Source: Bacteroidota bacterium (GTDB taxonomy: Bacteria; Bacteroidota; Bacteroidia; Chitinophagales; Saprospiraceae). From it: a DNA stretch of 64,000 bases. The position numbers were made by a program, and so were the translations under genes. Positions 6,965 through 37,100 of the stretch are shown in pieces (the first letter of the stretch is position 1; each line of letters starts with the position of its first letter). The notes below the pieces were generated by a model. That model saw nothing but the letters and a program-made list of their open reading frames with translations. It was not told the DNA's origin and made no database searches. The DNA is taken from NCBI GenBank assembly GCA_039030655.1, contig JBCCDS010000029.1:4672-68671 (forward strand), written 5' to 3'.

Positions 6965-6993
6965 AGCGATAGCTCCGGACTAGATATAAAAAA

Positions 6994-7020
6994 CCCCCCT
7001 TCTTAAAAGAAGAAGGGAGG
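6994..7020. terminator. Hairpin between convergent genes (CCCTTCTT aaaag AAGAAGGG)
   Basis: 8-bp stem at 6997-7004 / 7010-7017 flanked by A/T runs, located 30 nt after the SDR stop. Confidence 0.45.
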
Positions 7021-7125
7021 CCATCCCAAAAACCGATTTAAGTTCTTCGCGTCGATTGATTCACAGAGTCTTTTGGGAACTGACTCCTGGGTGAAAACGC
7101 TGTTCCTTGGTCGGTAGATAATATG

Positions 7126-7200: not shown

Positions 7201-8169
7201 TTATCTGCGACCTTCACGTACTTCTCGTTGGCGTGCTGCACGACGTTCCTGCATTTCTCCACGATCCAGGTGATAGCCCAGCGTCACTTCGTGAGACCCG
7301 TTGTTGTACTGCTGAAAAGTTGCGAAGGATAAATCGTAACTGTAGTAAATACGTAAGCCATCTAACTTGGTTCCTAATAGTAATCCGACAGCTCCCAAGT
7401 AGCGGTAAGACAAGCCAGTAATCAGTTGCTCATCCAGGAAAGAAGCCTGTAGATTGAAGTCCAGCATGAAGGGCGCATTCTGTACGTTTCGCATCATCAC
7501 TGAAGGCGTCAATATGACCTTCAATTCCGGTAGGTCAAAGTGGTGCCCCAGCAAGAAGGTGTAGTTAAAGCGACTTTCATCAGTAGCTCCTGATATATTA
7601 GCTAAGCGATTACTCACCAGATTATTAATCGTCACCCCACCGAAGGTCTTTTTGCGGAAGGTTCCGTAAAGACCAAATCCAGCATCAAACTCGTTAACCC
7701 CGTTCATGAAATCCATCAGGAGCTCATCACCTGCTTGAATCAAGGGGTTATTCAGTACGGCACCATCTAGCTGGATGCGCTGAAACTGAGTAAAGAAACC
7801 GAAGGCCGCCTGGAAAGCAGGTTGGTCTTTTTCTAGCTCTGGGCCAAATCCGAAGCGAAAAGCAACGTCTAATTGGCCCTTCACCCGATTTAATTGTGCC
7901 GCGGATTCTGAAAAAATGGCGGCACCCAATCCGAAGTTATTTCCGATCGGTCCGTTGAATCGTACGCCCAGCGTTGTAGGAGCATCATCAAAGCCCGCCC
8001 AGGCAGCCCGAGCATTAACCTGTAATTGGTATTCGTTTTCAAAGCCAGCAGCCCCCGGGTTAAGGATGATTGGGCTTTGTACGTAATGATTGAAAATCGT
8101 CTCCTCTTGGGCCGCAAGCCAGTTGGTCAACAGCCCCAGAAGTAGTAAAAGTGGTAGAGACTTTTTCAT
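7201..8169 (-). CDS. PorP/SprF family type IX secretion system membrane protein
   Basis: 322 aa with a signal peptide, an N-terminal QEETIFNHYVQSPIILNPGAAGF signature typical of PorP/SprF, and beta-barrel-like alternating sequence. Lies directly downstream of a gene with a type-B T9SS CTD. Confidence 0.8.
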   Translation of the reverse strand: MKKSLPLLLLLGLLTNWLAAQEETIFNHYVQSPIILNPGAAGFENEYQLQVNARAAWAGFDDAPTTLGVRFNGPIGNNFGLGAAIFSESAAQLNRVKGQLDVAFRFGFGPELEKDQPAFQAAFGFFTQFQRIQLDGAVLNNPLIQAGDELLMDFMNGVNEFDAGFGLYGTFRKKTFGGVTINNLVSNRLANISGATDESRFNYTFLLGHHFDLPELKVILTPSVMMRNVQNAPFMLDFNLQASFLDEQLITGLSYRYLGAVGLLLGTKLDGLRIYYSYDLSFATFQQYNNGSHEVTLGYHLDRGEMQERRAARQREVREGRR

Positions 8170-8195
8170 GGTGGGTATTTTAAGATCAGTTCTTG

Positions 8196-8240
8196 GGAAA
8201 AATAAAGAGCTCCTGCTTCGGCGAAACCGAAGCAGGAGCT
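8196..8240 (-). terminator. Rho-independent terminator after the 2947-aa gene
   Basis: Perfect 14-bp stem AGCTCCTGCTTCGG (8208-8221) / CCGAAGCAGGAGCT (8227-8240), followed on the minus strand by CTTTATTTTT. Confidence 0.7.
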
Positions 8241-8248
8241 AAAAGGAT

Positions 8249-11200
8249 TTATTCGCGAAGTATGGTCAAAGAACCACGCTTCTGTAGTCGGTCACCTGAA
8301 GGATTAGCATAATCCAGGATGTAGTAGTAAGGCCCTTCCGGTAGCTCAGAGCCATCATTGTTGCGGCCTTCAAAGCAGTTGAGACCTCCGTCCTGGCTAC
8401 AATCGTAGTCGTTGACCTTATACACTAGCTGTCCCCAGCGATTATAGATCTCCAGGACATTATCGTTGAAGTCAGCCCCATCGGTACAGAATAGGATGAA
8501 GGCCTCGTTCAGTCCGTCACCATTAGGAGTAATCACATTGCGTTCCGACAGACAGGGGAAGCGGCGATCGCGTACGGTTACTTCCACAATGATGGTTTGA
8601 CAACGAGCGTCATCCGAGACTTCAATCGTGTATACACCCGGACAGAGTCCTTCGGCTGTAGCTCCCGTCTGGCCCATTAATTGCGGCCATTCGTAGGTGT
8701 AGAGTCCGTTACCGCCGTTTACCGTTACATCAATGGTGCCGTTACAACCGTCATCAGCATCCGTAGAGCTGACCGTGGCCGTCAGGGCTTCCGGCGCATT
8801 AACCGAGAAGGTACCTTGAGCTAAACAGCCATTAGCATCCATTACTTCTACAGAATAGCGATTCGGACGCAGGAATGGAATCGCCGGCGTAATTCGGCCA
8901 TCTTCCCAGAGGTAATCATAATCGCCAGCACCGCCAGTAGCGACTAGCTCGATACGTCCATCGCGGGCGTCTTCACAACTAGCATCGGTGATATTAGCAA
9001 CCAACTCAATCGGGCTTGGTGCGATCACTTCCAGCTGCTCGTCGACGATACAACCATCTTCACTGATAACACGAAGGTCATAGGTTCCTGCCGGAGCGTC
9101 GTTGACGATTGCATCCATACTGACCAATCCGCCATTGCGGCGCCATTCGTAGGTATAGTTTCCTGTACCGCTAACTTCAGCCACCAGTTGTGCATCGCTA
9201 AATCCAGCACAGCTGACGTCAAAGCCATTGTAATCGGTCGTTACATTAGCCGTCACAAAAAAGCCATTAGCTGAGCTTATAGTGTAAGTCCGCACCAGGC
9301 TGGCACCAGTGTTGTCCGTAATGACAACGGTGTAGTCTCCAGCAGCAACCTCAGTAAGGTCTTCCGTTTCGGCAATTACGTCGGTGCTGCCTGCTTCTGT
9401 CCAGGAGAAGGTGTAAGGACCAACACCGCCAGCAACCGTAAGGTCTACGGAGCCCGTGGCATCCCCCGGACAGGCAACCTCAGTGGTCTCTCCCTCTTCG
9501 GTCAGTTCTCCAACGTTGAGGTCACTCACTATTTGTTGACAACCGTTGGCGTCCGTAATGGTAGCGGCATAAGTACCAGCACATAGCTCGCTGACCTGGA
9601 GGCCATCCAAATCAGGCTGGTTCCAGCTAACCGTATACATGGGGCTTCCCCCTTCTACGTTCAGGGTAATACTACCCACGCAGGCAGGATCTTCAGTATC
9701 AGAAACAATGGTTGTTCCGGCCACCACGATGGCATCGGGAGCAGTGATCGTAACATTAGTCGTTGACTGGTTACCCTGACCGTCCGTAACGGTGATTACA
9801 AAATCACCCGCCGGCAAGGCAATGATAAGCGTATCTGAATCACTGCTCCCCATCAGATCTCCTGGTTGAGCAACGGCCGTGTAAGGCCCCGTACCATTTA
9901 TGATGATCAACTCAGCGCTACCCAAGGAATCCGCACAAAGTGATGGAGAAGCCGTCGTACCGTCAATTGACATCGGTTGGGAATCGATGGTGAAGCACTC
10001 TTCCGTGGCACAACTGGACTGATCGTTGATCGTAACGCAGTAAACGCCGGGAGCCAGGCCGTCGACATCTTCCGTCATCGCAAAGATGTCGGTTTCACCG
10101 TCGACCCGCCACTCAAAAGTATAAGGCGCAGCCCCTCCCGTAGGACTCAGGTCAATCGTTCCGTTATCTCCGTTGGTAGAAGAAGAAGTCGACCCATTAG
10201 CTAGGATGGGGGTAGGAGCGAAGAGGGTAAAGTTTGAATTGATCGATTCCGTACCGCAGGTAATTTCTACGGAGTAGGTACCGGGTTCTAAACCATCGAT
10301 ATCTTCCATCATGCCAATCACCATACCTTCTGAGTCGGTCCAGACGAAACTACATTCGCCATTACCTCCAGCTACCGTGATGTCGATTGAACCATTGTTT
10401 GCGCCTACACAACCACTATTGATCGTTTGATCGACCAACACTAATCCTTCTGACACCTGGAAACATTGTGCTCTTTCACACATGCGGCTATCCGTCACAG
10501 TTACACAGTAGGTACCCACCATCGTAAGACCAGCAATATCCTCCGTACCTGCGCTAAAGCCACCAGGGCCTGACCAGTTGTAGGTATACTCTGGAGTGCC
10601 TCCATTAACCAGCAGATCGATAGCTCCATCGGTTCCAGCACTGATATTAGTGATCGAACCACTAGCCACCAGAATTTCTGGTTCTTCTACTTCGATGTCG
10701 ATAAGCTCACGACTACAGCCGTTCCCATCCGTCACGGTAACGGAGTAGAAGCCTGCGGCCAAATTGGTCTGCTGCAGCATTCCATCGGGCAGGTTGCCGC
10801 TCCAGTCGATGATGTAAGGACCATTACCCCCTAGAGTAGCAATCGTAATGCTGCCGTTGGCTTCGCCATTACAGCGCACGTCCTGGACATCTACCGCATT
10901 GACCGAGAAGGGCGGAGGTGCATTTACGGTGTAAGTGGCAGAGGCCGTTTCGTTGGTATTCGGGTTGGTAACTATTACGGTGTAGACCCCAGGCGGTAGG
11001 TCCATGACTACGGGGCCATTGCCCACGTTGGGCGACCATTCGTATTCCAGGTTAGCACCACCGGTAATCGTTAGGCTGATGCTACCGTCCGTATCACCTT
11101 CACAGCTGGTGCCTTGCACATCCGCGTCGACAATCATCGGCGCGTCCGAGCAATTGATACCTCCGTTGATCAGCGTAGCTGGAATCTGCCCGTCAGGGCC

Positions 11201-14200
11201 GAAGAATTCAACGGCAATTTGCTGATTGGTAAAGCTGACCGGCCCACATTCTTCCGACTGAATTTCGAAACAAAGTTCAAAGACCTGCGTCCCGTCCGCC
11301 ACTGTTTTTTCCAGACCATCTGGGGAAGGCCAGGCGACCCTTACATCATCATCTCCTGGATTGGTAATCAGGAAGGGGAATAGCCCAGGAATACAATCAA
11401 ATACCGGTCCGCCATCCAGCGGACAATTGGGTACGTTGGCATTCTGAAAAGTGATTACCGCCGGATCGAAAGTGATACCAAACTGGAAGCTGGATACTGC
11501 TTCAAAATTGAAGACCGTAACCGGCACACAAACGGTTTCTCCCACCATACCTTCGGCGGTACCGATGAGGAAGGTCAAACCACTACCTGGTGGCGGGAAA
11601 CCGCTATTAACGATTCCGCCCATCGCAACTACGCCTACATTTTGACCATTCGCATTTCCAGCAATGATAACCGTAGGTACGGCAGTAGGCGTCACCATGG
11701 TCTGAGCAGCTTCTAGTACTTCGAAGCAAATCGAAACCATCACTGAGCCATCCGCGAGGGTTTCACCTGCGGGAGTACCACTCTCCCACACAAAGGACAA
11801 GGCCCCGGGAGAGGGATTAGTGATATTCGCATTCGACAAGCCCGTCAGGTTGAAGTTGGTCGCGTTGTTGTAGCTCAGCACCGTGCTATTGTAGCTCACG
11901 GAAAATTCGAGCTCGGTGAGTTCATCAAAGTTCTCTACCGTAATGTCCAAACAGACTTCTGAGCCAACACCACCACTACCATCTCCAATATCGAAGATGA
12001 GGTTATCCGGCTGGTCGTTACAAGGAATACCATTATTGACCACTCCACCACTTACGTTGACGGTGACGTCGTCATTAGCGGCATTATTGGCCTCAATCAC
12101 TTGAGGCATATTGGTGATAGTAACCGGGGTAGTACAAGCTTCGATCACCGTATAACAGATGTCCAAAATGGTTTCCCCATTGGGCAAGGTCACACTACCA
12201 CTGGCCGCCGACCAGTTGACGATAATCTGCCCTGGAGTGGCGCCACTAGCAGTCAAGCCCGTTAGCGCACCATTAGGCGTCGCCACAGCAAACTGCAGCT
12301 TGGTTGGATCGTAATTGATGCTGAACTGGAAGTCGGTGATGGTATTAAAGTCAAAAGCATTGATATCGAGGCAAACCTGCTCGCCGACCATGCCCGTACC
12401 GTTACTAACCGTTAAGGTAATCTCATTGGGTGGACAAGCAGGACAGTCAGGACCACCACAGTCGATACCCGTCTCTTGGCCATTCATAATACCGTCTTCA
12501 CAGTCACCGGGGCATTCTGGGCAATCGGGACCGCCACAGTCCACACCCGTCTCCTGACCGTTTTGGATACCATCCTCACAGGTCGGCGGGCAAGCGGGGC
12601 AATCGGGACCGCCACAGTCGACGCCCGTCTCCTGGCCATTCTGGATGCCGTCGTCACAAGTCGGGCCACCACCGCAGCCGGCATTTACCGTGCCTGGGAA
12701 GACATCGATGGCCAGACTCTGCCCCAGGTTATTGGAGCCGGTAATGGAAATCGGGTCACCCGTTATTTCTACGGTAGTCGTACAATCATCCTCGATCGTG
12801 AAGCAGAAAGAAGCAATTACGGTTCCATCTGGAAAAGTAAGCCCCATAAACTCCGGGCTCTGATCTACCCAGACCACCCGCAGTGCATCACTGGGTGAAT
12901 TGGTCACCTGCATCGGGCTGAAGGCTGCCAGGAAGTCAGGATTTGCCGTAAAGCTGTTGTAGTTCAGGAAGGCTTCATCGAAATTGATGCTGAACTGGAA
13001 GGCCGTAACGTCGGTAAAGTTGGTCGTAACGACGTCTAGGCAAATTTCCGTGCCTACTCCACCTTCGCCGTTGAGGACGCGGAAGGTCAGGTTGTCCGAA
13101 CAGGGCGCACAGTTAGGACCACCACAGTCGATCTGCGTTTCGCCATTATTTAGGATACCATCATCACAAGTCTCGGTGGGCGGACAAGCAGCACAATCAG
13201 GGCCACCGCAGTCAACCCCCGTTTCTTGACCATTCTGAATACCATCCTCGCAGGTCGGAGGATTGATGCAAGGATCACAATCAGGACCGCCACAATCGAC
13301 ACCAGTTTCGTTGCCATTCTGGACACCATCATTACAAGTCGGACAGGGTGCACAATTGGGACCGCCACAATCGACATCCGTCTCGCCGTTGTTCTGGATG
13401 CCGTCATTACAGCTTTCAGTCGTACCGCCATTGACGATACCGCCACTGACGAATACATCCTGGCTCTGGCCCAGGTTATTGGAGGCTGTAATCGAAATGG
13501 GCGTACCCGTGATGTCCACCGGCGTTTGGTCGTCATCAAGCACCGTAAAGCAAAGCGTTGCAATCACCGTTCCGTCGGGGAAGCTGAGACCCATGAATTC
13601 CGGGCTCTGGTCTACCCAGACGATACGTAGAGCGTTGCTTGGCGAGTTGGTCACCTGCATCGGGCTGAAGGCCGCCAGGAAATCGGGATTGGCCGTGAAG
13701 TTATCGTAAGAAAGGAAGGCCTCGTCAAAGTTAACACTGAACTGGAAGGCCGTAATGTCGGTAAAGTTGGCCGTAGTAATATCCAGACATACCTGGCTAC
13801 CGACGCCACCGTTACCATCTTGTAGATCGAAAGTCAATAAGCTGTTACAGGGGGCACAGTTGGGGCCACCACAGTCGACTTCAATCTCACCGTTGTTCAG
13901 GATACCATCATCGCAGGTTTCCATGACGTTACAGGGCATACAATCAGGGCCACCACAGTCTATACCGGTTTCGTTACCGTTCTGGATGCCATCAGTACAG
14001 TTCGGTGGGTCGATACAAGGATCACAATTAGGACCGCCACAGTCCACGCCCGTTTCACCATTATTCTGGATACCGTCGTTACAGGTCTCGGTAGTCGAAC
14101 CGTTGACGATACCGCCATCGACAAATACATCCTGGCTCTGGCCCAGATTATTAGAGGCTGTGATAGAAATCGGCGAGCCCGTAATATCGACCGTTGTTTG

Positions 14201-17092
14201 ACCATCATCCACTACCGTAAAGCAGATGGTGGCAATCACCGTTCCGTCTGCAAAACTCAGGCCCAGGAATTCCGGGCTCTGGTCTACCCAGACCACCCGT
14301 AGTGCATCACTAGGCGAGTTAGTCACCTGCAGTGGGCTGAAAGCCGCTAGAAAATCAGGATTAGCCGTGAAGTTGTCGTAAGTCAGGAAGGACTCATCGA
14401 AATTGACACTGAACTGGAAAGCCGTAATGTCGGTAAAGTTGGCCGTGGTAATATCCAGACAGACTTGAGCGCCAATGCCCCCAGCGCCATTTTGAACATC
14501 AAAGGTCAGATCATCGCTCATGACCATACAAGGATCACAGCTACCGCCACAGTCTACGCCGGTTTCATCGCCGTTTTGAATTCCATCATTACAAGTCGTA
14601 CAAGGTGCACAACTACCGCCACAATCGACACCAGTTTCGTCACCGTTCTGGATGCCGTCGTTACAGGTCGGGGTCATCCCATCTCCATTAACGATGCCTC
14701 CTTGGGTGCTTACCGCCAGCGCCATACCGCTATTATCGGAAGCCGTGATGGAGATCGGTGAGCCGCTTATATCTACGAAAGTCTGACCATCGTCAACAAC
14801 CGTAAAGCAAATCGTAGCGATCACCGTTCCGTTAGGGAAGCTCAGGCCTTGGAATTCCGGGCTCTGATCCACCCAGACAACTCGTAAAGCATTGCTCGGT
14901 GAATTAGTCACCTGCAGTGGGCTGAAGTTGGCGATAAAATCGGGGTTGGCCGTAAAGTTGTCGTAAGTCAGGAAGGACTCGTCAAAATTGACACTGAATT
15001 GGAAGGCGGTTACATCCGTGAAGTTAGTCGTCGTGATGTCGAGACAAACCTGCGTACCTACATCGCCATCACCAGGCTGAATCGTGAAGCTCAAATCATC
15101 ACCTCCAGCACAAGGAGAGCAATTAGGGCCACCACAGTCAACGCCCGTCTCGCCATTGTTCTGGATGCCATCATTACAGCTTTCGCAAGGCGCACAAGAG
15201 CCACCGCAGTCAACACCAGTCTCTGTTCCGTTCTGGATACCGTCGTTACAAGTAGGCGTCGTTCCACCATTGACGGAACCACCCTGCGTATCCACCGGTA
15301 AGGCCTGTCCCATATTGTTGGCTGCCGTAATGACGATTGGGCTATTGGTAATGTCTACCGTAGTCGGGCCATCATCTACAATCGTGAAACATAGCGTAGC
15401 CAGGACCGTACCATCAGGGAAGGTAAGTCCCAGGAATTCCGGAGACTGATCCGTCCACACAATCCGCAGTACACCATCCGCTGAGTTAGTTACTTGCAGT
15501 GGACTAAAATTATTGGCGAAAGCCGGATTGGCCGTAAAGTTGGTATAGGCCAGGAAGTCGGTATCAAAATTGACACTAAACTGCCAGGCAGCAATATTGG
15601 TATAATTACTAGTGGTCAGGTCTAGGCAGATCTGCTGTCCGGCGTTGCCTGATCCATCAGCGATGGTAAAGCTCAGATTGTCGCTACCATTATCGCAGGG
15701 TGCACAACTGCCACCACAATCTACTCCCGTCTCCGTTCCATTCTGGATGCCGTCGTTACAGCTTGGTCCGCCGCCATTACCGGCATTGATCGTGCCATCG
15801 TCGGTGATTACGTTGAAGGGTACACCGTTGTTATTAAAGGCCTCGATTGGAATGGGCGTATTCGAAAAGACGACGTCCGTCTCACTATCGTCGAGGATGC
15901 GGAAACAAACCGAAAGCAAGATGGACCCATCGGGCAGGCTTGCACCCAGGTTATCCGCATTCTGGTAGAAATAGCTCACCCGAACTTGACCAGGCGTTCC
16001 ACTAGGTTGACTGGCCTGAATAGTAGGAAAAGCCAGGTTGTCGAAATTTTGGAATTGTAGGCGACTAGCGTCGTAGTTGATACTGAACTGCATCGCAGCC
16101 ACTGCTTCAAAAGCATTGACGGTGAGGTCCAGACAGACCGTAGTGCCGATGGCACCGTTACCATCTGACAAATCAAAGATGAAATCGTCACTGCCTCCTG
16201 CTGGTGGTGATGCCGTACCCGATAGCACGTCGGTTCCAATCATAGCCCCCGCGTCGGTGGTCGCGGAGCCGGCCGCGCCTTCGCTGATCACCTTCGTTCC
16301 TGGATCAGAATAGTTAGCGGGAATAGCATGACAGAGGCTAAAGGCCGTCAAGCCATCAGCTAGCGTTACCCCAGGCGTACTTCCGTGGGTATAACTGATC
16401 AAGGCAGTATTGTTCCCACTCACCGTCAGGTTGCCGGTCAGACTGGGGTGCACATTACTAATCGTAGGGGTGGCCACTGCTCCCAGTGGGTTACTCACCG
16501 TAAACTGGAAACTGGTGATCGCAGAGAACTCGGCGACCGTTACATCCTGACAAATAGTTTGCCCGGGCATAATTTGACCATTGCCGAAGTCGAAGACGAG
16601 ATCATTAGGTACCGCACCATTACCTTCATTGACCAGGCCATTGTTGTAGGTCACCCCGGCAATCGGCCCCGATTGGCCACTCACTTCTGCGGTAATCGGC
16701 GTGCTGGAGAAGACCACATTCGTCTCTTCATCAGACAGCACGTTGAAGCAAACAGTACCAATCAGAAAGGGGTCGGCGCTGGTAAAGCCTTCCAAGCCGA
16801 AAACGGACCATTGCACCCGGATATCTCCAGGGGCCGGATTGCTGATATTAACGGGAGCTCCAATCAGGATTTCTCCGGTTCGAGAGCCGTACTCCAGCAC
16901 ACTGGCGTCGTAATTGACGCTGAACTGAAATCCAAAGATGTTGTCGAAGTTGTCGCCGGTTATATCGAGACAGAGCTCCGTTCCAGTAGCGGCATCTTCA
17001 CTTTCGATCGTGAGAATTGGCACCTGAGAGAATAGTTGCGTAAAGCTGAACAAGCATAGGATGCCCGCCAGTAAACTGTAGCGTCCTTCCAT
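8249..17092 (-). CDS. Giant SprB-like cell-surface protein: 11 cohesin-like modules, 15 four-Cys motifs, about 11 SprB repeats and a T9SS type-B C-terminal sorting domain
   Basis: Uninterrupted 2947-aa ORF with a signal peptide ending LFSFTQLFSQ. The recurring FQFS[VI]N[YF]D motif marks the cohesin-like modules. Other repeats are the motif CxDGxxNxxETGxDCGGxxCxxC (x15) and SprB-type repeats (C.G..NGSI.L...GG..PY.Y.W) over roughly nt 8590-11110. The C-terminus ITPNGDGLNEAF...YNRWGQLVY...GPYYYIL matches the gliding-motility/type-B CTD. Confidence 0.9.
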   Translation of the reverse strand: MEGRYSLLAGILCLFSFTQLFSQVPILTIESEDAATGTELCLDITGDNFDNIFGFQFSVNYDASVLEYGSRTGEILIGAPVNISNPAPGDIRVQWSVFGLEGFTSADPFLIGTVCFNVLSDEETNVVFSSTPITAEVSGQSGPIAGVTYNNGLVNEGNGAVPNDLVFDFGNGQIMPGQTICQDVTVAEFSAITSFQFTVSNPLGAVATPTISNVHPSLTGNLTVSGNNTALISYTHGSTPGVTLADGLTAFSLCHAIPANYSDPGTKVISEGAAGSATTDAGAMIGTDVLSGTASPPAGGSDDFIFDLSDGNGAIGTTVCLDLTVNAFEAVAAMQFSINYDASRLQFQNFDNLAFPTIQASQPSGTPGQVRVSYFYQNADNLGASLPDGSILLSVCFRILDDSETDVVFSNTPIPIEAFNNNGVPFNVITDDGTINAGNGGGPSCNDGIQNGTETGVDCGGSCAPCDNGSDNLSFTIADGSGNAGQQICLDLTTSNYTNIAAWQFSVNFDTDFLAYTNFTANPAFANNFSPLQVTNSADGVLRIVWTDQSPEFLGLTFPDGTVLATLCFTIVDDGPTTVDITNSPIVITAANNMGQALPVDTQGGSVNGGTTPTCNDGIQNGTETGVDCGGSCAPCESCNDGIQNNGETGVDCGGPNCSPCAGGDDLSFTIQPGDGDVGTQVCLDITTTNFTDVTAFQFSVNFDESFLTYDNFTANPDFIANFSPLQVTNSPSNALRVVWVDQSPEFQGLSFPNGTVIATICFTVVDDGQTFVDISGSPISITASDNSGMALAVSTQGGIVNGDGMTPTCNDGIQNGDETGVDCGGSCAPCTTCNDGIQNGDETGVDCGGSCDPCMVMSDDLTFDVQNGAGGIGAQVCLDITTANFTDITAFQFSVNFDESFLTYDNFTANPDFLAAFSPLQVTNSPSDALRVVWVDQSPEFLGLSFADGTVIATICFTVVDDGQTTVDITGSPISITASNNLGQSQDVFVDGGIVNGSTTETCNDGIQNNGETGVDCGGPNCDPCIDPPNCTDGIQNGNETGIDCGGPDCMPCNVMETCDDGILNNGEIEVDCGGPNCAPCNSLLTFDLQDGNGGVGSQVCLDITTANFTDITAFQFSVNFDEAFLSYDNFTANPDFLAAFSPMQVTNSPSNALRIVWVDQSPEFMGLSFPDGTVIATLCFTVLDDDQTPVDITGTPISITASNNLGQSQDVFVSGGIVNGGTTESCNDGIQNNGETDVDCGGPNCAPCPTCNDGVQNGNETGVDCGGPDCDPCINPPTCEDGIQNGQETGVDCGGPDCAACPPTETCDDGILNNGETQIDCGGPNCAPCSDNLTFRVLNGEGGVGTEICLDVVTTNFTDVTAFQFSINFDEAFLNYNSFTANPDFLAAFSPMQVTNSPSDALRVVWVDQSPEFMGLTFPDGTVIASFCFTIEDDCTTTVEITGDPISITGSNNLGQSLAIDVFPGTVNAGCGGGPTCDDGIQNGQETGVDCGGPDCPACPPTCEDGIQNGQETGVDCGGPDCPECPGDCEDGIMNGQETGIDCGGPDCPACPPNEITLTVSNGTGMVGEQVCLDINAFDFNTITDFQFSINYDPTKLQFAVATPNGALTGLTASGATPGQIIVNWSAASGSVTLPNGETILDICYTVIEACTTPVTITNMPQVIEANNAANDDVTVNVSGGVVNNGIPCNDQPDNLIFDIGDGSGGVGSEVCLDITVENFDELTELEFSVSYNSTVLSYNNATNFNLTGLSNANITNPSPGALSFVWESGTPAGETLADGSVMVSICFEVLEAAQTMVTPTAVPTVIIAGNANGQNVGVVAMGGIVNSGFPPPGSGLTFLIGTAEGMVGETVCVPVTVFNFEAVSSFQFGITFDPAVITFQNANVPNCPLDGGPVFDCIPGLFPFLITNPGDDDVRVAWPSPDGLEKTVADGTQVFELCFEIQSEECGPVSFTNQQIAVEFFGPDGQIPATLINGGINCSDAPMIVDADVQGTSCEGDTDGSISLTITGGANLEYEWSPNVGNGPVVMDLPPGVYTVIVTNPNTNETASATYTVNAPPPFSVNAVDVQDVRCNGEANGSITIATLGGNGPYIIDWSGNLPDGMLQQTNLAAGFYSVTVTDGNGCSRELIDIEVEEPEILVASGSITNISAGTDGAIDLLVNGGTPEYTYNWSGPGGFSAGTEDIAGLTMVGTYCVTVTDSRMCERAQCFQVSEGLVLVDQTINSGCVGANNGSIDITVAGGNGECSFVWTDSEGMVIGMMEDIDGLEPGTYSVEITCGTESINSNFTLFAPTPILANGSTSSSTNGDNGTIDLSPTGGAAPYTFEWRVDGETDIFAMTEDVDGLAPGVYCVTINDQSSCATEECFTIDSQPMSIDGTTASPSLCADSLGSAELIIINGTGPYTAVAQPGDLMGSSDSDTLIIALPAGDFVITVTDGQGNQSTTNVTITAPDAIVVAGTTIVSDTEDPACVGSITLNVEGGSPMYTVSWNQPDLDGLQVSELCAGTYAATITDANGCQQIVSDLNVGELTEEGETTEVACPGDATGSVDLTVAGGVGPYTFSWTEAGSTDVIAETEDLTEVAAGDYTVVITDNTGASLVRTYTISSANGFFVTANVTTDYNGFDVSCAGFSDAQLVAEVSGTGNYTYEWRRNGGLVSMDAIVNDAPAGTYDLRVISEDGCIVDEQLEVIAPSPIELVANITDASCEDARDGRIELVATGGAGDYDYLWEDGRITPAIPFLRPNRYSVEVMDANGCLAQGTFSVNAPEALTATVSSTDADDGCNGTIDVTVNGGNGLYTYEWPQLMGQTGATAEGLCPGVYTIEVSDDARCQTIIVEVTVRDRRFPCLSERNVITPNGDGLNEAFILFCTDGADFNDNVLEIYNRWGQLVYKVNDYDCSQDGGLNCFEGRNNDGSELPEGPYYYILDYANPSGDRLQKRGSLTILRE
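12434..15760 (-). repeat. In-frame tandem module array inside the giant gene (cohesin-like module plus 1-4 Cys motifs per unit)
   Basis: The landmark CTGAA[CT]TGGAA (complement of the FQFS codons) recurs at 12321, 12990, 13737, 14409 and 14994, with variants at 15576 and 16083. Spacings are 669, 747, 672, 585, 582 and 507 nt. The first and last Cys motifs lie at 15695-15760 and 12434-12503. Confidence 0.85.
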
Positions 17093-17177
17093 GGGAGTAA
17101 TCGGGATTTGGGATATGATAGTAATTGGGACGAAAAACTAGGGCGGTTCAGGTGAATAGCTTACATCGGTATAAAAA

Positions 17178-17948
17178 CTAGCCGCCGGTAAAGACGACTT
17201 TTTGACTCAGTTGTAGCTCGTCGCCGGTCACCTCAATTAAGTAGGTGCCCGCGGCGGGCATATCGCTAGCTTCCAAAGATACTTGGTTCACACCAGCATC
17301 CAATTCCAGCGATCGTTGTTGCACCAAACGCCCTTGCAGATCATAGATACGCAACTGGGCCGTTTGTTCTTTTATCATTTCAATACGCAGCTGGGTCGCC
17401 ACGGAGAAGGGGTTGGGAAGGGCGGTCATTTGTACTTCCGCAGGTGTTCCCGTCAGGTCTGGCATTACGCGGATAGTGGCACCAGTAAACTGGGCAGGCA
17501 TTTCCTGACCTACACCGTTGCCCACTAAACAGCGGGTGGGTTGCTCGCTGAAATTGAGATGAACTTCCTCTCCTACCCGAGCCAATACTTTAAAGCGTAG
17601 ACTATAGAGTATAGTCCCGTCTTCCAGGTCATAGCCTTGCAGGGCCGGATCCATAAAAGTATAAGCCAACCGCCCTGCATCGGTCTGACGCAGATTGAAA
17701 TTAGCCGTAGCGGTAGCACCTAATGCTAAGTTCTTTACTTCCTGAAAACTTAATTGCTCTGGATCCCAATTGAGGGAAAGTTGAGCAGCTGCGACTGCAC
17801 GAAAGTCTTCTACAGACAAGTCCAGCTCCACGAACTGATCGGGAGCGGCTTCTACATCAGGAATGAAGAAGGTAGTAAGCTGTGCCTGGAGCTGGCTAGC
17901 CAATAGCAGCGGCAGGACTCCAAGGAAGCGGAGTAGCATTCTGCTCAT
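17178..17948 (-). CDS. Small secreted single-cohesin-domain protein with T9SS type-A C-terminal sorting domain
   Basis: Signal peptide MSRMLLRFLGVLPLLLASQLQAQ (ATG at 17948; the ORF track starts at a GTG at 17954). Cohesin-like signature VAAAQLSLNWDPEQLSF. C-terminal LPNPFSVATQLRIEM...IYDLQGRLV matches the Por secretion tail. Confidence 0.8.
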   Translation of the reverse strand: MSRMLLRFLGVLPLLLASQLQAQLTTFFIPDVEAAPDQFVELDLSVEDFRAVAAAQLSLNWDPEQLSFQEVKNLALGATATANFNLRQTDAGRLAYTFMDPALQGYDLEDGTILYSLRFKVLARVGEEVHLNFSEQPTRCLVGNGVGQEMPAQFTGATIRVMPDLTGTPAEVQMTALPNPFSVATQLRIEMIKEQTAQLRIYDLQGRLVQQRSLELDAGVNQVSLEASDMPAAGTYLIEVTGDELQLSQKVVFTGG

Positions 17949-18063
17949 ATTCACGGGATTATGTTAAACAAGTGGTTGCTGTTCGGACAGCCACTAAAGC
18001 TACGCTAAGGTAACTCTAAATTTCCGAACCGCCTGTGATTTTTGGTCTGCCCTAAAACATTAC

Positions 18064-18090
18064 GCCCCGCCTGCCAAAGGCAGACGGGGC
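18064..18090 (-). terminator. Terminator hairpin after the 1667-aa gene
   Basis: GCCCCGCCTGCC (18064-18075) pairs with GGCAGACGGGGC (18079-18090), 35 nt downstream of the stop at 18125. Confidence 0.55.
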
Positions 18091-18124
18091 GCTTGTATTC
18101 ATTAAGCTTAGGAAGTAGCCCTCT

Positions 18125-21100
18125 TTAGCGGACCACTACCATTTTTTTACTGGCTACGTATTCACCTGCGACTAAGGTGTAAGTCAGCACGCCACTAGCT
18201 TTCAGTTCAGTAGTACTAAGGTTCAGATTATTGTAACCTGCGCTGCCGTCAAACTGACGTACCAGCACTACCCGACCTGCTACATCCTGAACGGTCAACG
18301 TTACCTCTGCATCTTCTACTAGATTGAAGGCGATTTGCGTCCTGTCAGCTACTGGGTTAGGTGCATTTTGGTAAAGGTTGAAAACTTCCAGCTGCAGCTC
18401 ATCTTGACCGAAGTTTAGACCAAGGCCAAAGACTTCACCTACCGAATTGTAGGCTTCCGCACGGATAGCATCGCTAGTCACCATCAGCTGTTCGCTTAGG
18501 TTCACATCTTCTGTAGCACGGACAACCAAACTAAAGAGGACTTCATCGGTATCCAGGCTTTCCGCAAACTGGTTAAAGCTCATCGCCAATTGACCACGCT
18601 CCAGGCGGTTCAAGTTGAAGTTGGCGGTACCTAGCAATCCATAGTTCAAATCAACAAACTCCAGACTTTCTCCCAATTGCAGGGTACCCTGGAAACCAAT
18701 CAGTTCTGCAGCCTCAGCGGCGGTAAACTCAATGGTATACGTGTTCCCCGCTACTAGTTCGCGCTCCGCTACAGACAGTCCCAAGCTCGAACGACCTCCT
18801 TCTTCCATTCCTGGACGAGTGAGGCTGATATCGCCCGAAACGTTACCGACCATGATAGCGATGAAATCAGCACCACTAAGGTCACCAGACAAGTTATTGA
18901 CGTTGTATACCTCTGGGAAAGTTGTAGCCCAGGGGTTGGTAGGATTGGGGAAGACAAAGTCCGCATCAACAAAGCGCCAGGCCGAATTGAATGCATACTC
19001 TTGGTCCAGCCCCAGAATCAAGCGACGAATCGCAACTAGGTCAGTCACTGAAACCATCCGGTTACCATCCGCATCAGCTGCCAGGTATTCGTAAGGCGAA
19101 TCCAGTGCATTAATACCCAGGATGTGCTGAGTAATAAAGACCAAGTCAAGGGTAGAAATATCAAAGAGGTGGAAGCTGTAATCTTCCGAAGCAGGAGAGA
19201 TGGTGTAATCACCACCCAGCTCCAGATCGGAAACTACGTATACGCCTTGGTTGTCAGTCACTACTTGATCGGAAACTTCACCACTTACGTTTACATCCAC
19301 ACCAGGTACTAATTCAGCACCTTCCGTCAGGATAGTACCCTGGATAGATCCAGTTCCGTTTCCTGAACAGATATTATCATTGTTGAATTGTACCAGCAGG
19401 GTCGTCTCACAGTAGTCCGAATTCCCGGCTTGATCCATCGCGTAAACGCGGACGATCAGGGTCGCATCATCGTTACAAGTCAGAATAATTCCAGTATCGG
19501 CTGGATTAGGGCCTTCAAAGTCGGCCGCTGCTGCATCAGCAGCCCGGTAGATCGCATATTCTACTGGGCCAGAGCAATCTTCTGCACCACTGACAATGTA
19601 CTCGCTCGCCCAAATAGCGGCAGTACCCCCACCTAAGCCATCAGGCATTAGGGTCACTGTCAGACCATTGATACAAATAGGCGTCGGAGCCTTGGCATCC
19701 ACGATTTCGAAGATAATCAGGTCAATGTCACTATTACCACAGCCGTCCTCTGCACGAATGCGGATAGCGTGGCGACCTAACGGAAGATTATCCAGATTAA
19801 CCGTAAAGGTTCCGTCACCATTGTTGGTCACTTCACCATTTACCAGGTTGGAAGTCGTAATGAAGTCCGCTAGGTTGAGGACATCGTTACCGTCCGTATC
19901 TCCGAAGAAGGCATCAAGCTGAACCAGCGCACCGAAATCATCGGCTGAAGTACAGGCATCAGCAATGGTGAAGCCTAATTCGACATCTTCGACACAGTCG
20001 CCATCCTCATCCTCAAATGTATCAGGTATAGTGACGGTCAACTCGGGAGCAACATCGTCGTACACCTTGATAAACTGACGGTAGAGGAAGGCACCACGGC
20101 TTTCGTCCGTACCGTAGGGCTCCGTAGAAGAACCGAAGACGCGACCGTTAGGGTCGTGTAAATCTAAGGGGGAGATAAAGCCGTTGAAACGGTTATTGTC
20201 CCGGTCTAGATAAGCAATATCATCATCCAAAGTATTGATCGCACGTGGTAAGACGTGCAACCAAGTACGCTCCTCCAGGAAGTTATCGTCATCGGCATCG
20301 CGAGGAATGGTATAAGGATCTTCCTCGGTGCTATACTCACACCAGTTCAGTACTTCGTAAGTGATACGTAGTTTATAGCACTCATCGGCAGTAGCCTGGA
20401 AAGTATCGATTTCAGTAGTAGTAGTGATCAGATCACAACCCCGCTCGTCAAAGGTTACGGCATTGTAGTCGGGTTCAATACATTCCTCTGAACCAGCATC
20501 AGCGGGGAATACCACCGTGTAGTCATGGATACCCAATACCTGAATGAACTGGCTGCAAGTACCCGTAGAAACGAAGCCTTGCGCATCTTCAACGGAGAAG
20601 CTGCGAATGATCGCACCAACCCCACAAGAGTTACGCGTGTCGATTACCGATTGAGTAACGGTTATTCCAGGACAGTTGTCCAGACCGTTAGCAGCGCCGA
20701 AGATGGCGTCTAATTGAGCGCCCACGCCTACGGGGTCAGCAGCGAAAGCCGCCTCCAACTCCTGCGCCAAGGTAGCTAAATCTTCATCGTCACAAGTAGT
20801 CACCTCTGGACCAGGGGCCACACACTGAGGAGCTAATTTGTCTTCGACCAGTACGTTTAACCAGCAGGTATTGCTGTTGCCTTCGGCATCGGTCACCCGC
20901 AGTCCAATAGCTACTGTACCCAGGTGGTCACAGTTAAGGATCAGGCTTTCTTGCCAGCCTCCAGTACCAGGAAGGGGTAGGTTATCTTCACCAATAAAGG
21001 CGATTTCCCGAGTAATGCCCGAACATTCATCGTAAGAAGCACGGTCAATATCAGCAGGAACGAGGAAAGCCACCCCGGCTCCACCCAGGCTAATATCCAA

Positions 21101-23128
21101 CCCGTCTTCACAGATAGCAACGGGTGCCGTACGGTCTTCGATAGAAATAGGCACATCCAGTGTGTCGCGATTATCGCAGGCATCAGCAGCGATGTAACGT
21201 AAAACGTGTTGGCCAGCTGGAATTTCAAAGGCAGCACCATTTACCGCGAATGGTCCCAGAGCGGCAACTGCCGTGCTGCCACCAGGCAGGATGTAGGCAA
21301 CTACGGTGGGGTTGTCATCACAGTTGTCAGTCACACCTCCAGCGGGAACGATGAAGTTGGCCGAACAATCTGGGTTGCTGGTAGAGAAAATCAGCGGGTA
21401 AGCATCAGGCTCGCCGTTGAAGTCCAGATCCTGAGAAGGAGGCGTAATGGTTGGTGCATCAAAGTCACCGACTTTGACTAATTGTTGGAAAGTTTCTACT
21501 TCGTCGGGCTGACACCAGTCAATGACGGTGAAGGTCCGCACGAACTTGTAGGTCTGTTCGCAAGTCTGAATCCGGGGGCCGTCCTCGAAAGTGGAGCCGA
21601 TATTACAGAAGTTATCGTCTAGGAAGATCGGGCCGTTAGGACCTGCGAAGAAGGGATAATCACTAGGCTGTGGCTCCGGGTTAATATCACCGTACTGGTT
21701 AGGAACCGGCAGCAGTGGGAAGGTTTCGTCGCATTCGAAGATCGCTTCCTGGGCTACACCTTCTACATCATCGATAGAAGGACGGATGAAGGTAATGTCG
21801 TAACTAACTACTGCTGGTGCATTTTCTTCACCGCTGACCGAAGTACAGCTCAGACCGTCACGGGCCGTAAAAGTACGGGTGATGATAATGTCATCACAAG
21901 CACCCGTGTTGGTAACGATATCGTTGACACAAATCTCCAGATTAGAACAACCATCGAAAAAGGTTGGAATACCGCCGCCGGCCAGTAAGCGAGCGCGCAG
22001 TGCTGGGTTCATACTGTTATTCAAGGTGGCTCCGGAATCGCCGTCGGCAATCCAGCAGCGAGAAATTTCGCTAGGCAGGAGGGAGATGTTTACGGTTTCT
22101 ACGGCATCGCAGAAGAGATCATCCGGACCTTCGGGTACATTAACCGGCTCAGGAGAGGTTTTGTCTTCGGCATTAATAGTACCCCAAGCGGTAGTAAATC
22201 CAAATATTTGCTCTGGGTCGGCAGTAACCGTCCACTGCCAAACTCCACAACCATCAATAATTGGACCGTTACTTGGATCATCGTCCTGAACAACAATATT
22301 GTAAGCTTCTGGTGCAGGTACAAGTCCATTACCATCAACATCATAATCTCCTGAAAGAATCATCTCGACCACGACCATTGCCTGACAAGCATCATTCAAT
22401 GTGACATTAACATCGCTGATTGCTGCCAGATTTACTTCCTCTACCCCTGGAGGGATAACAATGACGTCATCATCAGGGTCATCGAACGAAACTCCCATAC
22501 CATCAGGCTGGAAAGTATTGAAAGAAAACTGATCGGCCGTTGCCCCGCCTCCATCTATACCGATGGTTGCAGAAGCAGCATTGTTTTGCCCACCAGCATC
22601 ATCGGCAGTTAAGTCTTGTAAGCTGAAAGCAATGATATTCGTTCCTTCCGTCAGTTGAACCTGAAAGGTGATTGGTTCAAATCCACCTATATAGTTGTAA
22701 ACATTCCATTGAATAATGAAAACTCGGTCTGGTGCTGCTCCTTGTGTTTCTACAAAAACTTGGCTATTGATTGTAGGTTCTTGAAACAGATCATCCCATA
22801 GAGGGAAGATAGCTGGACCAATGCTGGCTGGCAGAGCAGTATTCGTAAAAGGAACATCACCAGTATTAGTACCAATCAGTATCCCGCCGTTACCTCCAAT
22901 CTGGATATTAACCGGAGCGGTATATTCAACACCATAGAATGTAAAATCGAAGGGTATGAAAGAGCTTGCTTCTCCATCATCTCCGAAAGTCCCAGCAATA
23001 GTTCCCGTGCCTGAAATATCGATAAACGGCACTGTGCCCACTCCGCTAGTCACGGTGTATTGAGCCTGCAAGCTGAGACTTCCCAGGCAAAACAGACACA
23101 GTAGTAGATTTTGTAAAATTCGGTTCAT
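18125..23128 (-). CDS. Large secreted multi-domain protein with Ig/HYR-like modules, a dockerin-like segment, a cohesin-like module and a T9SS type-A sorting domain
   Basis: 1667 aa with signal peptide LFCLGSLSLQAQ and repeated D..AP....C module boundaries (DFDAPTITPP, DRTAPVAICEDG, DKLAPQCVAPG, DAKAPTPICINGL). A CarboxypepD_reg-like stretch GSIQGTILTEG...VVTDNQGVYVVSDL is present. The EF-hand dockerin-like DADGNRMVSVTDLVAIRRLILG is at nt 19007-19078. The C-terminus LYQNAPNPVADRTQIAF...VQDVAGRVV is a type-A CTD. Confidence 0.85.
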   Translation of the reverse strand: MNRILQNLLLCLFCLGSLSLQAQYTVTSGVGTVPFIDISGTGTIAGTFGDDGEASSFIPFDFTFYGVEYTAPVNIQIGGNGGILIGTNTGDVPFTNTALPASIGPAIFPLWDDLFQEPTINSQVFVETQGAAPDRVFIIQWNVYNYIGGFEPITFQVQLTEGTNIIAFSLQDLTADDAGGQNNAASATIGIDGGGATADQFSFNTFQPDGMGVSFDDPDDDVIVIPPGVEEVNLAAISDVNVTLNDACQAMVVVEMILSGDYDVDGNGLVPAPEAYNIVVQDDDPSNGPIIDGCGVWQWTVTADPEQIFGFTTAWGTINAEDKTSPEPVNVPEGPDDLFCDAVETVNISLLPSEISRCWIADGDSGATLNNSMNPALRARLLAGGGIPTFFDGCSNLEICVNDIVTNTGACDDIIITRTFTARDGLSCTSVSGEENAPAVVSYDITFIRPSIDDVEGVAQEAIFECDETFPLLPVPNQYGDINPEPQPSDYPFFAGPNGPIFLDDNFCNIGSTFEDGPRIQTCEQTYKFVRTFTVIDWCQPDEVETFQQLVKVGDFDAPTITPPSQDLDFNGEPDAYPLIFSTSNPDCSANFIVPAGGVTDNCDDNPTVVAYILPGGSTAVAALGPFAVNGAAFEIPAGQHVLRYIAADACDNRDTLDVPISIEDRTAPVAICEDGLDISLGGAGVAFLVPADIDRASYDECSGITREIAFIGEDNLPLPGTGGWQESLILNCDHLGTVAIGLRVTDAEGNSNTCWLNVLVEDKLAPQCVAPGPEVTTCDDEDLATLAQELEAAFAADPVGVGAQLDAIFGAANGLDNCPGITVTQSVIDTRNSCGVGAIIRSFSVEDAQGFVSTGTCSQFIQVLGIHDYTVVFPADAGSEECIEPDYNAVTFDERGCDLITTTTEIDTFQATADECYKLRITYEVLNWCEYSTEEDPYTIPRDADDDNFLEERTWLHVLPRAINTLDDDIAYLDRDNNRFNGFISPLDLHDPNGRVFGSSTEPYGTDESRGAFLYRQFIKVYDDVAPELTVTIPDTFEDEDGDCVEDVELGFTIADACTSADDFGALVQLDAFFGDTDGNDVLNLADFITTSNLVNGEVTNNGDGTFTVNLDNLPLGRHAIRIRAEDGCGNSDIDLIIFEIVDAKAPTPICINGLTVTLMPDGLGGGTAAIWASEYIVSGAEDCSGPVEYAIYRAADAAAADFEGPNPADTGIILTCNDDATLIVRVYAMDQAGNSDYCETTLLVQFNNDNICSGNGTGSIQGTILTEGAELVPGVDVNVSGEVSDQVVTDNQGVYVVSDLELGGDYTISPASEDYSFHLFDISTLDLVFITQHILGINALDSPYEYLAADADGNRMVSVTDLVAIRRLILGLDQEYAFNSAWRFVDADFVFPNPTNPWATTFPEVYNVNNLSGDLSGADFIAIMVGNVSGDISLTRPGMEEGGRSSLGLSVAERELVAGNTYTIEFTAAEAAELIGFQGTLQLGESLEFVDLNYGLLGTANFNLNRLERGQLAMSFNQFAESLDTDEVLFSLVVRATEDVNLSEQLMVTSDAIRAEAYNSVGEVFGLGLNFGQDELQLEVFNLYQNAPNPVADRTQIAFNLVEDAEVTLTVQDVAGRVVLVRQFDGSAGYNNLNLSTTELKASGVLTYTLVAGEYVASKKMVVVR

Positions 23129-36559: not shown

Positions 36560-36593
36560 GGATATTAGGGGTTAGTGTAGGGTGGAAGGCTAC

Positions 36594-37073: not shown

Positions 37074-37100
37074 ATTGATCTAATTTAAAAGGTAGTGGAA

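Follow-up and report, generated by a model that had tools for sequence, protein, structure and literature searches.

The subject of this report is a cluster of four genes, here named p1 to p4, on a 64-kb stretch of DNA (hereafter the window) from a Saprospiria (Bacteroidota) bacterium, in which cohesin and dockerin modules are joined to type IX secretion system (T9SS) sorting domains. The first gene encodes a secreted adhesin-type protein with a dockerin and a cohesin in its C-terminal tail, the second a protein with a single cohesin, the third a giant protein with 11 cohesins, and the fourth an outer-membrane protein of the PorP/SprF family; the order of these genes is conserved and the dockerin-bearing proteins are non-enzymatic. 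We read the cluster as a conserved four-gene surface-assembly locus of Lewinellaceae/Saprospiria, in which dockerins of the p1 type would plug into the cohesins of p2 and p3, and we place about half of our confidence in this reading. The four co-oriented open reading frames (ORFs) lie exactly where an earlier examination of the sequence, the original prediction, had put them:

18125..23128, minus strand: p1, ORF of 1667 amino acids (aa); secreted HYR/Ig-like, adhesin-type protein with a dockerin-cohesin tail
17178..17954, minus strand: p2, ORF of 258 aa from a GTG start
8249..17092, minus strand: p3, ORF of 2947 aa; multi-cohesin giant
7201..8169, minus strand: p4, ORF of 322 aa; PorP/SprF-family outer-membrane protein

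The same four genes are called on the Logan assembly contig of run SRR22824269, on which p2 has 253 aa, and the N-termini of all four proteins have a signal-peptide-like sequence.

Conservation of the Four-Gene Cluster

The main argument for a common function is that the four genes are found together across a deep divergence, which argues that their products work together. The order p1-p2-p3-PorP/SprF is kept in Neolewinella persica (L005), in Lewinella sp. W8 (L007) and on two JGI metagenome contigs (L008 and L009), and the same order recurs in a distant relative (L010) in which p3 is merely 25% identical. The syntenic p1 orthologues are 1468-1728 aa long and align over their full length with 46-47% identity, and those of p2 (253-295 aa) have the same build and the same position as p2 in four other loci. 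Purpose-built hidden Markov models (HMMs) recognize, in these syntenic loci, a dockerin and a tail cohesin in every p1 orthologue and one cohesin in every p2 orthologue, and the p3 orthologues carry 8-12 cohesins. The PorP/SprF gene directly follows the p3 orthologue in five loci, and the arrangement is reversed in a further one (L011).

Proteins of the p3 type, defined by 3-13 cohesins, SprB repeats and a CHU_C domain, were retrieved about 45 times, from Lewinella sp. W8, N. persica, N. agarilytica, N. lacunae, N. aurantiaca, Lewinellaceae SD302 and many metagenomes; the labels that they bear at NCBI include “cohesin domain-containing protein.” No dockerin was found in any of the roughly 45, and several tail-bearing paralogues of p1 occur alongside the p3-type gene in Lewinella sp. 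W8, N. agarilytica, N. lacunae and Lewinellaceae SD302.

The composition of the locus can vary. At 20285-26822 of L010 two further genes lie behind the PorP/SprF gene, one for a HYR protein with a tail cohesin and a dockerin above the Pfam cut-off (30.7 bits), the other for a HYR protein that is truncated by the end of the contig and for which a Cohesin match was precomputed, so that clusters can hold more than one dockerin-bearing adhesin. In Saprospiraceae bacterium DHS20C18 (L011, 8775-19407) a PorP/SprF gene, a gene for a five-cohesin CHU_C protein and then one for a second SprB/CHU_C protein are found, with no p1- or p2-like gene in the locus; a scaffold can therefore occur without both upstream partners.

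Cohesin-Bearing Proteins and Their Outer-Membrane Partner

The modules of p2 and p3 are the following:

17445-17882, minus strand: cohesin of p2; Pfam Cohesin (PF00963) 44.2 bits, cut-off 24.1
17193-17417, minus strand: type-A sorting domain of p2; TIGR04183 43.8 bits (cut-off 23), Por_Secre_tail 32.6 bits (cut-off 27)
11135..17026, minus strand: cohesin array of p3, residues 23-1986, 11 modules; phmmer/hmmsearch with the modules of p3 itself
12434..15760, minus strand: cysteine-rich repeat region, p3 residues 445-1553; pattern search and tandem DNA repeats
8543..11134, minus strand: SprB-repeat stalk, p3 residues about 1987-2850; Pfam SprB 202 bits in 8 stretches (cut-off 28)
8261..8542, minus strand: type-B T9SS sorting domain, p3 residues 2851-2944; PF13585 (CHU_C) 73.6 bits, cut-off 27

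The two-part build that the original prediction had assigned to p2, a single cohesin and a type-A sorting domain, is borne out by scores above the cut-offs, and the best PDB sequence match of p2 reaches an E-value of only 0.03. The count of 11 cohesins in p3 also holds: the Pfam Cohesin model matches ten stretches (232 bits, cut-off 24.1), and the eleventh module, which is the second in the array (residues 160-298), is divergent, is missed by Pfam and was recovered with an HMM of the protein's own modules. Cohesins 4-8 are 59-84% identical to one another, and the remaining modules 16-44%. The type-B sorting domain rests on CHU_C; against TIGR04131 the same protein scores 27.6 bits, below the cut-off of 35.

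The linkers between cohesins 3 to 9 are built of 15 four-cysteine repeats of 22-23 aa (CxDGIQNGxETGVDCGGxxCxxC; in a looser form CxDG[IV]xNxxExxxDCGGxxCxxC), which occur in runs of 1, 2, 2, 3, 4 and 3. This repeat has no match in Pfam, NCBIfam or the PDB sequences, and it is found, in 2-23 copies per protein, in T9SS-exported reprolysin-like metalloproteases, GEVED proteins, S8 peptidases and other secreted proteins, as well as in di-haem oxidoreductases and in a Bradymonadia IPT/TIG protein; it appears to be an uncatalogued extracellular mini-domain. Residues 1-2000 of p3 matched a single locus of the genome collection, and did so through the cysteine-rich repeats only; the source species is accordingly absent, at close identity, from these reference genomes. 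A metalloprotease of the reprolysin-like (M12B) kind that has a T9SS sorting domain of type A is encoded in the window itself (54758-57265, plus strand); it carries neither DCGG repeats nor a dockerin, unlike the many relatives retrieved through p3 that do have DCGG repeats.

The assignment of p4 is based on 150.6 bits against PF11751 (PorP_SprF; cut-off 22.3) and 172.1 bits against TIGR03519 (cut-off 90.55), the whole profile being covered, and the gene is separated from p3 by a gap of 79 bp on the same strand, as expected from the pairing of a type-B cargo with an adjacent PorP/SprF gene that had been proposed. The features of an SprB-type system, namely SprB repeats, a type-B sorting domain and an sprF-like neighbor, are thus all present in p3/p4, and they are common to many type-B cargo proteins that have no part in motility. 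The further suggestion that the platform is possibly mobile leaned on just the SprB repeats and the PorP/SprF neighbor; since these are general to type-B cargo, they are not evidence of movement, and nothing else supports the suggestion. No gliding genes turned up in the scanned parts of the window.

The C-Terminal Tail of p1

At its C-terminal end, p1 carries in succession a β-sandwich, the dockerin, a segment of conserved sequence, its cohesin and a T9SS sorting domain of type A; a search with this region found 74 homologues, of which 43 were aligned. The features of p1 are:

22439..23059, minus strand: extra N-terminal domain, residues 24-230, about 205 aa; absent from three syntenic orthologues
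19190..19354, minus strand: CarboxypepD_reg-like β-sandwich, residues 1259-1313, directly before the dockerin; X-module-like
19001..19189, minus strand: dockerin-like module, residues about 1314-1376; degenerate first loop, canonical second calcium loop
18830..19000, minus strand: strongly conserved segment (NSAWRFVD...NPW...FPEV..N.NNL), residues 1377-1433, following the dockerin
18416..18790, minus strand: tail cohesin, residues 1447-1571; hhalign, Foldseek and homologues
18134..18361, minus strand: type-A T9SS sorting domain, residues 1590-1665; TIGR04183 25.0 bits (cut-off 23)

The dockerin, which the original prediction had described as having a degenerate first segment, falls just below the Pfam threshold: scanned alone, the segment scores 21.5 bits (E 2.7e-4) against Dockerin_1 (PF00404), for which the cut-off is 22.9, and 12.3 bits in a longer context. 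Among PDB sequences it matches 8x39_A (E 3.8e-6) and the ScaB dockerin of A. cellulolyticus (4uyp_B, E 8.2e-5), and Dockerin_1 is matched by 33 of the 43 aligned tail homologues (E<=0.01). The second calcium loop is canonical (D-A-D-G-N-R-M-V-S-V-T-D, in DADGNRMVSVTD, followed by a helix), and this loop and the helix pattern are conserved; in the first repeat the helix is retained (STLDLVFITQHILG) and the acidic loop is missing, a degeneration that is also found across the family. In the AlphaFold model the module has three main helices (residues 68-78, 87-93 and 103-113 of the tail fragment) with pLDDT values of 86-96. Single-binding-mode dockerins in which one of the repeats is degenerate are known. 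Despite the sub-threshold Pfam score, the assignment of this module as a putative dockerin is supported, at the level of sequence, by the matches to solved dockerins and by the homologues.

The tail cohesin of p1 has no Pfam match with its own sequence, and its identity is supported by comparison. The profile of the p1-tail family aligns with the cohesins of p2 and p3 with an hhalign probability of 95% (E 3e-8), and an HMM of this cohesin, from the construction of which p2 and p3 were left out, recognizes both the p3 array (E 4.7e-29) and p2 (E 5e-7). Pfam Cohesin is matched by 10 of the 43 aligned homologues, and among the 50 best PDB matches that Foldseek gave for the AlphaFold tail model about 40 are cohesins (target TM-scores 0.5-0.62 over about 140 columns), headed by the non-cellulosomal Clostridium perfringens modules 2jh2 and 2w1n. 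The sorting domain that closes the tail passes a second model when scanned as a fragment (PF18962, 27.7 bits, cut-off 27). Of the profiles named in the original prediction, SprB, TIGR04183 and, in p2 and p3, Cohesin scored above their cut-offs, Dockerin_1 and TIGR04131 remained below theirs, and the HYR matches in p1 were weak, as were those of Big_9. All module assignments of the original prediction hold.

On either side of the dockerin lie elements that seem to belong to the same conserved unit. The preceding β-sandwich has five strands with pLDDT above 90 in the AlphaFold model; its Pfam score in p1 is 26.8-29.8 bits, under the cut-off of 32.3, and the CarboxypepD_reg family is matched by 34 of the 43 aligned homologues. 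An arrangement in which the dockerin would be an insertion inside this sandwich was considered and found no support in the sequence: after in-silico removal of the dockerin the Pfam match still ends at position 53 of the 82 of the profile. In the segment after the dockerin the W, F, P, N and L columns are nearly invariant, the pLDDT is 94-96, and the columns co-vary with those of the dockerin.

These observations bear on an explanation without any docking, in which the cohesin-like modules are generic β-sandwich spacers or bind ligands such as glycans, and the dockerin-like element is a structural calcium-binding helix pair. A structural role would fit the covariation of the dockerin with the conserved segment that follows, on which it is predicted to pack, and the explanation also draws on the score below the Pfam gathering threshold, on the family-wide degeneration of the first loop and on the poor similarity of the cohesins to characterized ones, of which the PDB match of p2 is an example. 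However, dockerin and cohesin are found together in one tail, one locus and one lineage with a consistency far beyond that expected of unrelated spacers, conservation extends to the canonical second calcium loop and to the helix pattern, and non-cellulosomal pairs that do bind are known, such as those of the C. perfringens toxin complexes, whose cohesins are the best structural matches found here. We therefore regard the absence of docking as improbable.

The sole Pfam match of the extra N-terminal domain is to a NIDO-like family, around the motif FPLWDDL, and is non-significant (E 0.07); searches of Pfam, NCBIfam and PDB sequences gave nothing significant. The domain may be a ligand-binding tip.

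Occurrence of the Tail on Other Giant Proteins

The tail of p1 is a widespread cassette, for which neither Pfam nor NCBIfam has a model covering the whole. Its profile, run against 1.84 billion representative proteins, gave 8,955 matches at E<=1e-30. The best 150 of these, all below E 1e-177, are proteins of 545-6062 aa with the whole cassette at the C-terminus; dockerin and tail cohesin are present in each of the 150, the dockerin ends about 290 residues from the C-terminus, and some of the proteins have 2-4 dockerins. A further 130 or so conserved residues precede the cassette. The presence of a dockerin in all of the best 150 tail proteins, set against its absence from the p3-type proteins, gives complementary parts and supports docking of the former on the latter.

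Named cluster members of the tail-bearing set are Saprospiraceae or Bacteroidota proteins annotated as “hypothetical” or “HYR domain-containing,” and the passenger domains of 26 sampled tail-bearing proteins are HYR, PKD, Ig-like, CHRD and LTD. Several paralogues with the tail are present per genome, at least four in Lewinella sp. W8. In a long-read assembly two tail genes end giants of the cadherin/Big_9 type and of the HYR/LTD type, and no scaffold gene is nearby. Pairwise identities show no clear split between the dockerins of the syntenic p1 orthologues and those of the paralogues, and give no sign of a distinct subtype. A related protein of 1208 aa, encoded at 9065-12691 of a locus (L002) from an uncultured Saprospiraceae, is a T9SS protein that combines the cysteine-rich repeats with DUF7507, a weak SprB repeat and the dockerin unit; the purpose-built HMM detected no tail cohesin in it, and it may, from its sequence, be a dockerin-only variant.

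The nature of the passengers bears on a third explanation, namely that p3 is a true cellulosome-like scaffold onto which dockerin-bearing enzymes encoded elsewhere in the genome are loaded. A multi-cohesin protein with a T9SS sorting domain has a parallel in the predicted scaffoldin of ‘Ca. Stygibacter’ (PMC8542988); Saprospiraceae secrete many T9SS hydrolases, and the window holds one, the type-A reprolysin-like protease. However, this protease has no dockerin, no catalytic domain was found in the 26 sampled carriers or in the 43 tail homologues, and the Pfam scan of p3 revealed no carbohydrate-binding module (CBM). As the original prediction had noted for the block, none of p1, p2, p3 and p4 has a catalytic domain detectable with Pfam or NCBIfam. 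The cluster and the sampled carriers thus offer the multi-cohesin scaffold of a cellulosome (p3, with 11 modules) without its dockerin-bearing glycoside hydrolases and its scaffold CBM, and an enzyme scaffold is in our view very improbable.

A Possible Route of Surface Assembly

Who would bind whom, and by which steps the products would be anchored, we infer as follows. Type-B cargo is known to stay bound to its own PorP-like barrel, as in SprB-SprF and PG1035-PorP, and type-A cargo loses its sorting domain and becomes attached to anionic lipopolysaccharide (PMC9143113; review PMC11611037). By analogy, p3 would leave the cell through the T9SS, and the PorP/SprF β-barrel p4, as its cognate partner, would hold it on the outer membrane; its SprB repeats would make up a membrane-proximal stalk, and the 11 cohesins, with the disulfide-rich mini-repeats as spacers between them, would extend outwards from it. 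The type-A sorting domain of p2 would be cut off and p2 linked to anionic lipopolysaccharide, leaving a single bare cohesin at the surface. p1 and its many paralogues would be lipid-anchored, non-enzymatic HYR/Ig-like adhesins with the dockerin unit near their membrane-proximal end, and a dockerin of this type would plug into one of the cohesins of p2 or p3, possibly once the cohesin in its own tail has released it. In this way lipid-anchored adhesins would be tied to a protein-anchored platform and shown in multiple copies, and the output would be adhesion to particles, prey or other cells rather than catalysis.

A bolder version of this scheme can be imagined, a T9SS ‘adhesiosome’ in which each of the 11 cohesins of a PorP/SprF-anchored outer-membrane filament grips a giant adhesin of the HYR type by a dockerin bond of high mechanical strength, p2, as a lone lipid-anchored cohesin, adds another site for docking, the adhesins' own tail cohesins either cap the dockerin while it is exported or extend the assembly by daisy-chaining, and the whole is maybe carried along the gliding track. 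We consider it speculative and, taken as a whole, unlikely; if true, it would be the first Gram-negative architecture of the cellulosome style that serves load-bearing adhesion or prey capture and not catalysis.

Position of the Dockerin and the Case Against Docking on p2 and p3

Two AlphaFold models of the tail have mean pLDDT values of 89.8 and 90.2; the one that includes the sorting domain has a pTM of 0.72 and the one that lacks it a pTM of 0.85, residues 171-189 being a low-confidence linker. A pTM of 0.85 implies a confident mutual placement, because independently placed bodies of about 175 and 130 residues could not reach this value; the modeling thus suggests that the sandwich-dockerin unit packs against the cohesin of its own chain. 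In a covariation analysis (mutual information with average product correction, 194 tails, an effective number of 145 and hence underpowered) dockerin-cohesin pairs account for 2 of the top 60, and 15 of the top 60 join the dockerin to the following segment, with one hub column dominating.

A competing explanation takes these tails as self-contained. The dockerin would bind the cohesin of the same tail, either in cis, as a clasp that makes the membrane-proximal base rigid, or in trans, giving daisy chains or a lateral network; the cohesins of p2 and p3 would bind something else or act as spacers, and the neighborhood of the genes would reflect co-expression. The strict one-to-one occurrence of dockerin and cohesin in all of the best 150 proteins, at a fixed distance from the C-terminus, agrees with it, and so do the far greater abundance of the tail (8,955 representatives at E<=1e-30 against about 45 p3-type proteins), the tail genes with no scaffold gene nearby and the packing of both halves implied by the rise in pTM after removal of the sorting domain. 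There is also a precedent for cohesin and dockerin on one non-cellulosomal protein, in Archaeoglobus fulgidus, the cohesin of which (2xdh) is among the Foldseek matches of the tail. What self-contained tails leave unexplained is why a dockerin-free multi-cohesin protein and a lone-cohesin protein should stand beside a tail gene across a deep divergence; moreover, the covariation between dockerin and cohesin is weak, at the limited power just given, and the modeled packing may not involve the dockerin helices. We consider this explanation unlikely, though serious enough to be kept in view.

Docking of p1-type dockerins on p2 and p3, the reading that we prefer, has to be held against several observations. 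The dockerin of p1 is atypical, in that it stays under the Pfam cut-off, just one of its calcium loops is canonical and it forms part of a larger conserved unit, and the packing in the tail models suggests that it may be occupied in cis, which would weaken a simple picture of loading onto a scaffold. Most tail-bearing genes apparently lie far from any scaffold gene, and a tail carried by many proteins away from scaffold genes must make sense alone. The stoichiometry within the window is one dockerin to 13 cohesins, and outside the cluster no dockerins or cohesins occur elsewhere in the 64 kb. Finally, hairpins stand at the gene ends:

18062..18092, minus strand: G+C-rich hairpin directly after the p1 stop codon; 14-bp stem with 11 G-C pairs; consensus match only
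8208..8240, minus strand: hairpin and T tract between p3 and p4; 15-bp stem, then CTTTATTTTT; consensus match only
6992-7022, minus strand: hairpin directly after the p4 stop codon

The hairpins after the stop codons of p1, p3 and p4 are G+C-rich with stems of 13-15 bp, two of the three are followed by a T tract, and by their form they may be terminators or attenuators within the cluster; with such strong hairpins after stop codons, a single transcript for the cluster is not assured. A scan for sigma-70 promoters gave fewer matches than in shuffled sequence, the consensus being unsuited to Bacteroidota promoters.

Comparison With Known Systems

A close organizational counterpart is the sca cluster of Ruminococcus flavefaciens, which encodes the ScaA/ScaB scaffoldins, CttA, an adhesin with an X-dockerin, and ScaE, a single-cohesin protein that is anchored by a sortase. 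In both cases one cluster brings together a scaffold with several cohesins, a single cohesin for the cell surface and an adhesin that is not an enzyme, the dockerin of the adhesin is preceded by a β-sandwich (the X module), and the lone cohesin is, or in the case of p2 would be, bound covalently through a reaction of the sortase type, a part that PorU plays for type-A T9SS cargo. However, the present cluster belongs to Gram-negative Bacteroidota, with export by the T9SS and presumed anchoring through lipopolysaccharide and a PorP/SprF barrel instead of the cell wall; its scaffold has neither a dockerin nor a CBM, no dockerin-bearing enzymes were found, and the adhesin tail has a cohesin of its own. 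The similarity in sequence to the clostridial modules is very low.

Cohesins and dockerins are also used outside cellulose degradation. The GH84/GH33 toxin complexes of C. perfringens are non-cellulosomal cohesin-dockerin pairs that bind, and in A. fulgidus both modules are on one polypeptide. Those pairs belong to enzymes or small proteins, whereas here a fixed C-terminal cassette is found on giant T9SS adhesins next to a separate 11-cohesin platform. Occurrence of the modules outside cellulosomes, in Bacteroidota among others, has been reported (Peer et al., 2009, as cited in PMC6487960).

As for the anchoring, the SprB-SprF pair of Flavobacterium johnsoniae and PG1035-PorP of Porphyromonas gingivalis (PMC9143113) resemble p3-p4 in having a giant or type-B cargo followed by its own PorP/SprF gene, and SprB repeats in the cargo; in p3, however, the distal two thirds are a cohesin array, which is unreported for SprB, and the upstream genes encode a dockerin-bearing adhesin and a lone cohesin. 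Within the Saprospiria, Aureispira has a ‘grappling hook’ protein, GhpA, with GhpB (a PorP homologue) and GhpC (a PorE homologue) (bioRxiv 10.1101/2024.01.29.577165). This is a system of the same class, a giant Ig-repeat T9SS cargo with an adjoining PorP homologue that forms an outer-membrane-anchored appendage for capture and adhesion; no cohesin or dockerin is mentioned for GhpA, and p4 has no adjoining PorE homologue. The ‘Ca. Stygibacter’ (Cloacimonadota) scaffoldin, predicted from sequence only, likewise combines cohesins in tandem and a T9SS sorting domain in one very large protein (PMC8542988). It differs by its CBM2/CBM3 modules and by its dockerin-bearing enzymes (GH18, GH57 and peptidases), whereas here there are no CBMs, the dockerin partners found are non-enzymatic, the sorting domain is of type B and a PorP/SprF partner is present.

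In the literature that our search covered there is no account of a type-B cargo that has several cohesins and a PorP/SprF partner, nor of the conserved cluster of four genes, nor of the dockerin-cohesin-sorting domain tail, and proteins of the kinds found in the cluster are in public databases under automatic names only. The system apparently combines known kinds, a cohesin-dockerin assembly and a type-B cargo with its PorP, in an undescribed form.

Other Features of the Window

The cluster is flanked by housekeeping genes, with msrB, msrA, a lytic transglycosylase and an M48 peptidase on one side and a short-chain dehydrogenase, an epimerase and AnmK on the other. Further away, three adjoining ORFs of about 150 aa (36107-37559, minus strand) have several hydrophobic stretches each, with no Pfam match and no detectable mutual similarity. 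A 732-aa DUF5916 protein is encoded at 38208-40406 (minus strand), and at 72-2492 (plus strand) the window start cuts into a gene for a protein of 1342 aa that has guanylate cyclase, AAA_16 and TPR domains, leaving its C-terminal part; neither has an evident link to the cluster.

Biological Significance

The cluster joins a textbook system of Gram-positive cellulose degraders, familiar chiefly from clostridia, with the anchoring of T9SS cargo, which is an active question in the Bacteroidota. The location of these modules on giant adhesin-like proteins, and not on enzymes, suggests an unstudied route to a sticky cell surface, and it provides a testable idea, that lipid-anchored giant adhesins are tied to a protein-anchored platform. 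The C-terminal cassette of about 400-540 aa, recognized on at least 150 distinct giant proteins, is probably carried by thousands. New orthogonal cohesin-dockerin pairs for the Gram-negative surface would also be useful in surface display. Saprospiria are abundant on marine and wastewater particles and filaments and some of them are predators, so that an adhesion machinery of this kind would be ecologically relevant.

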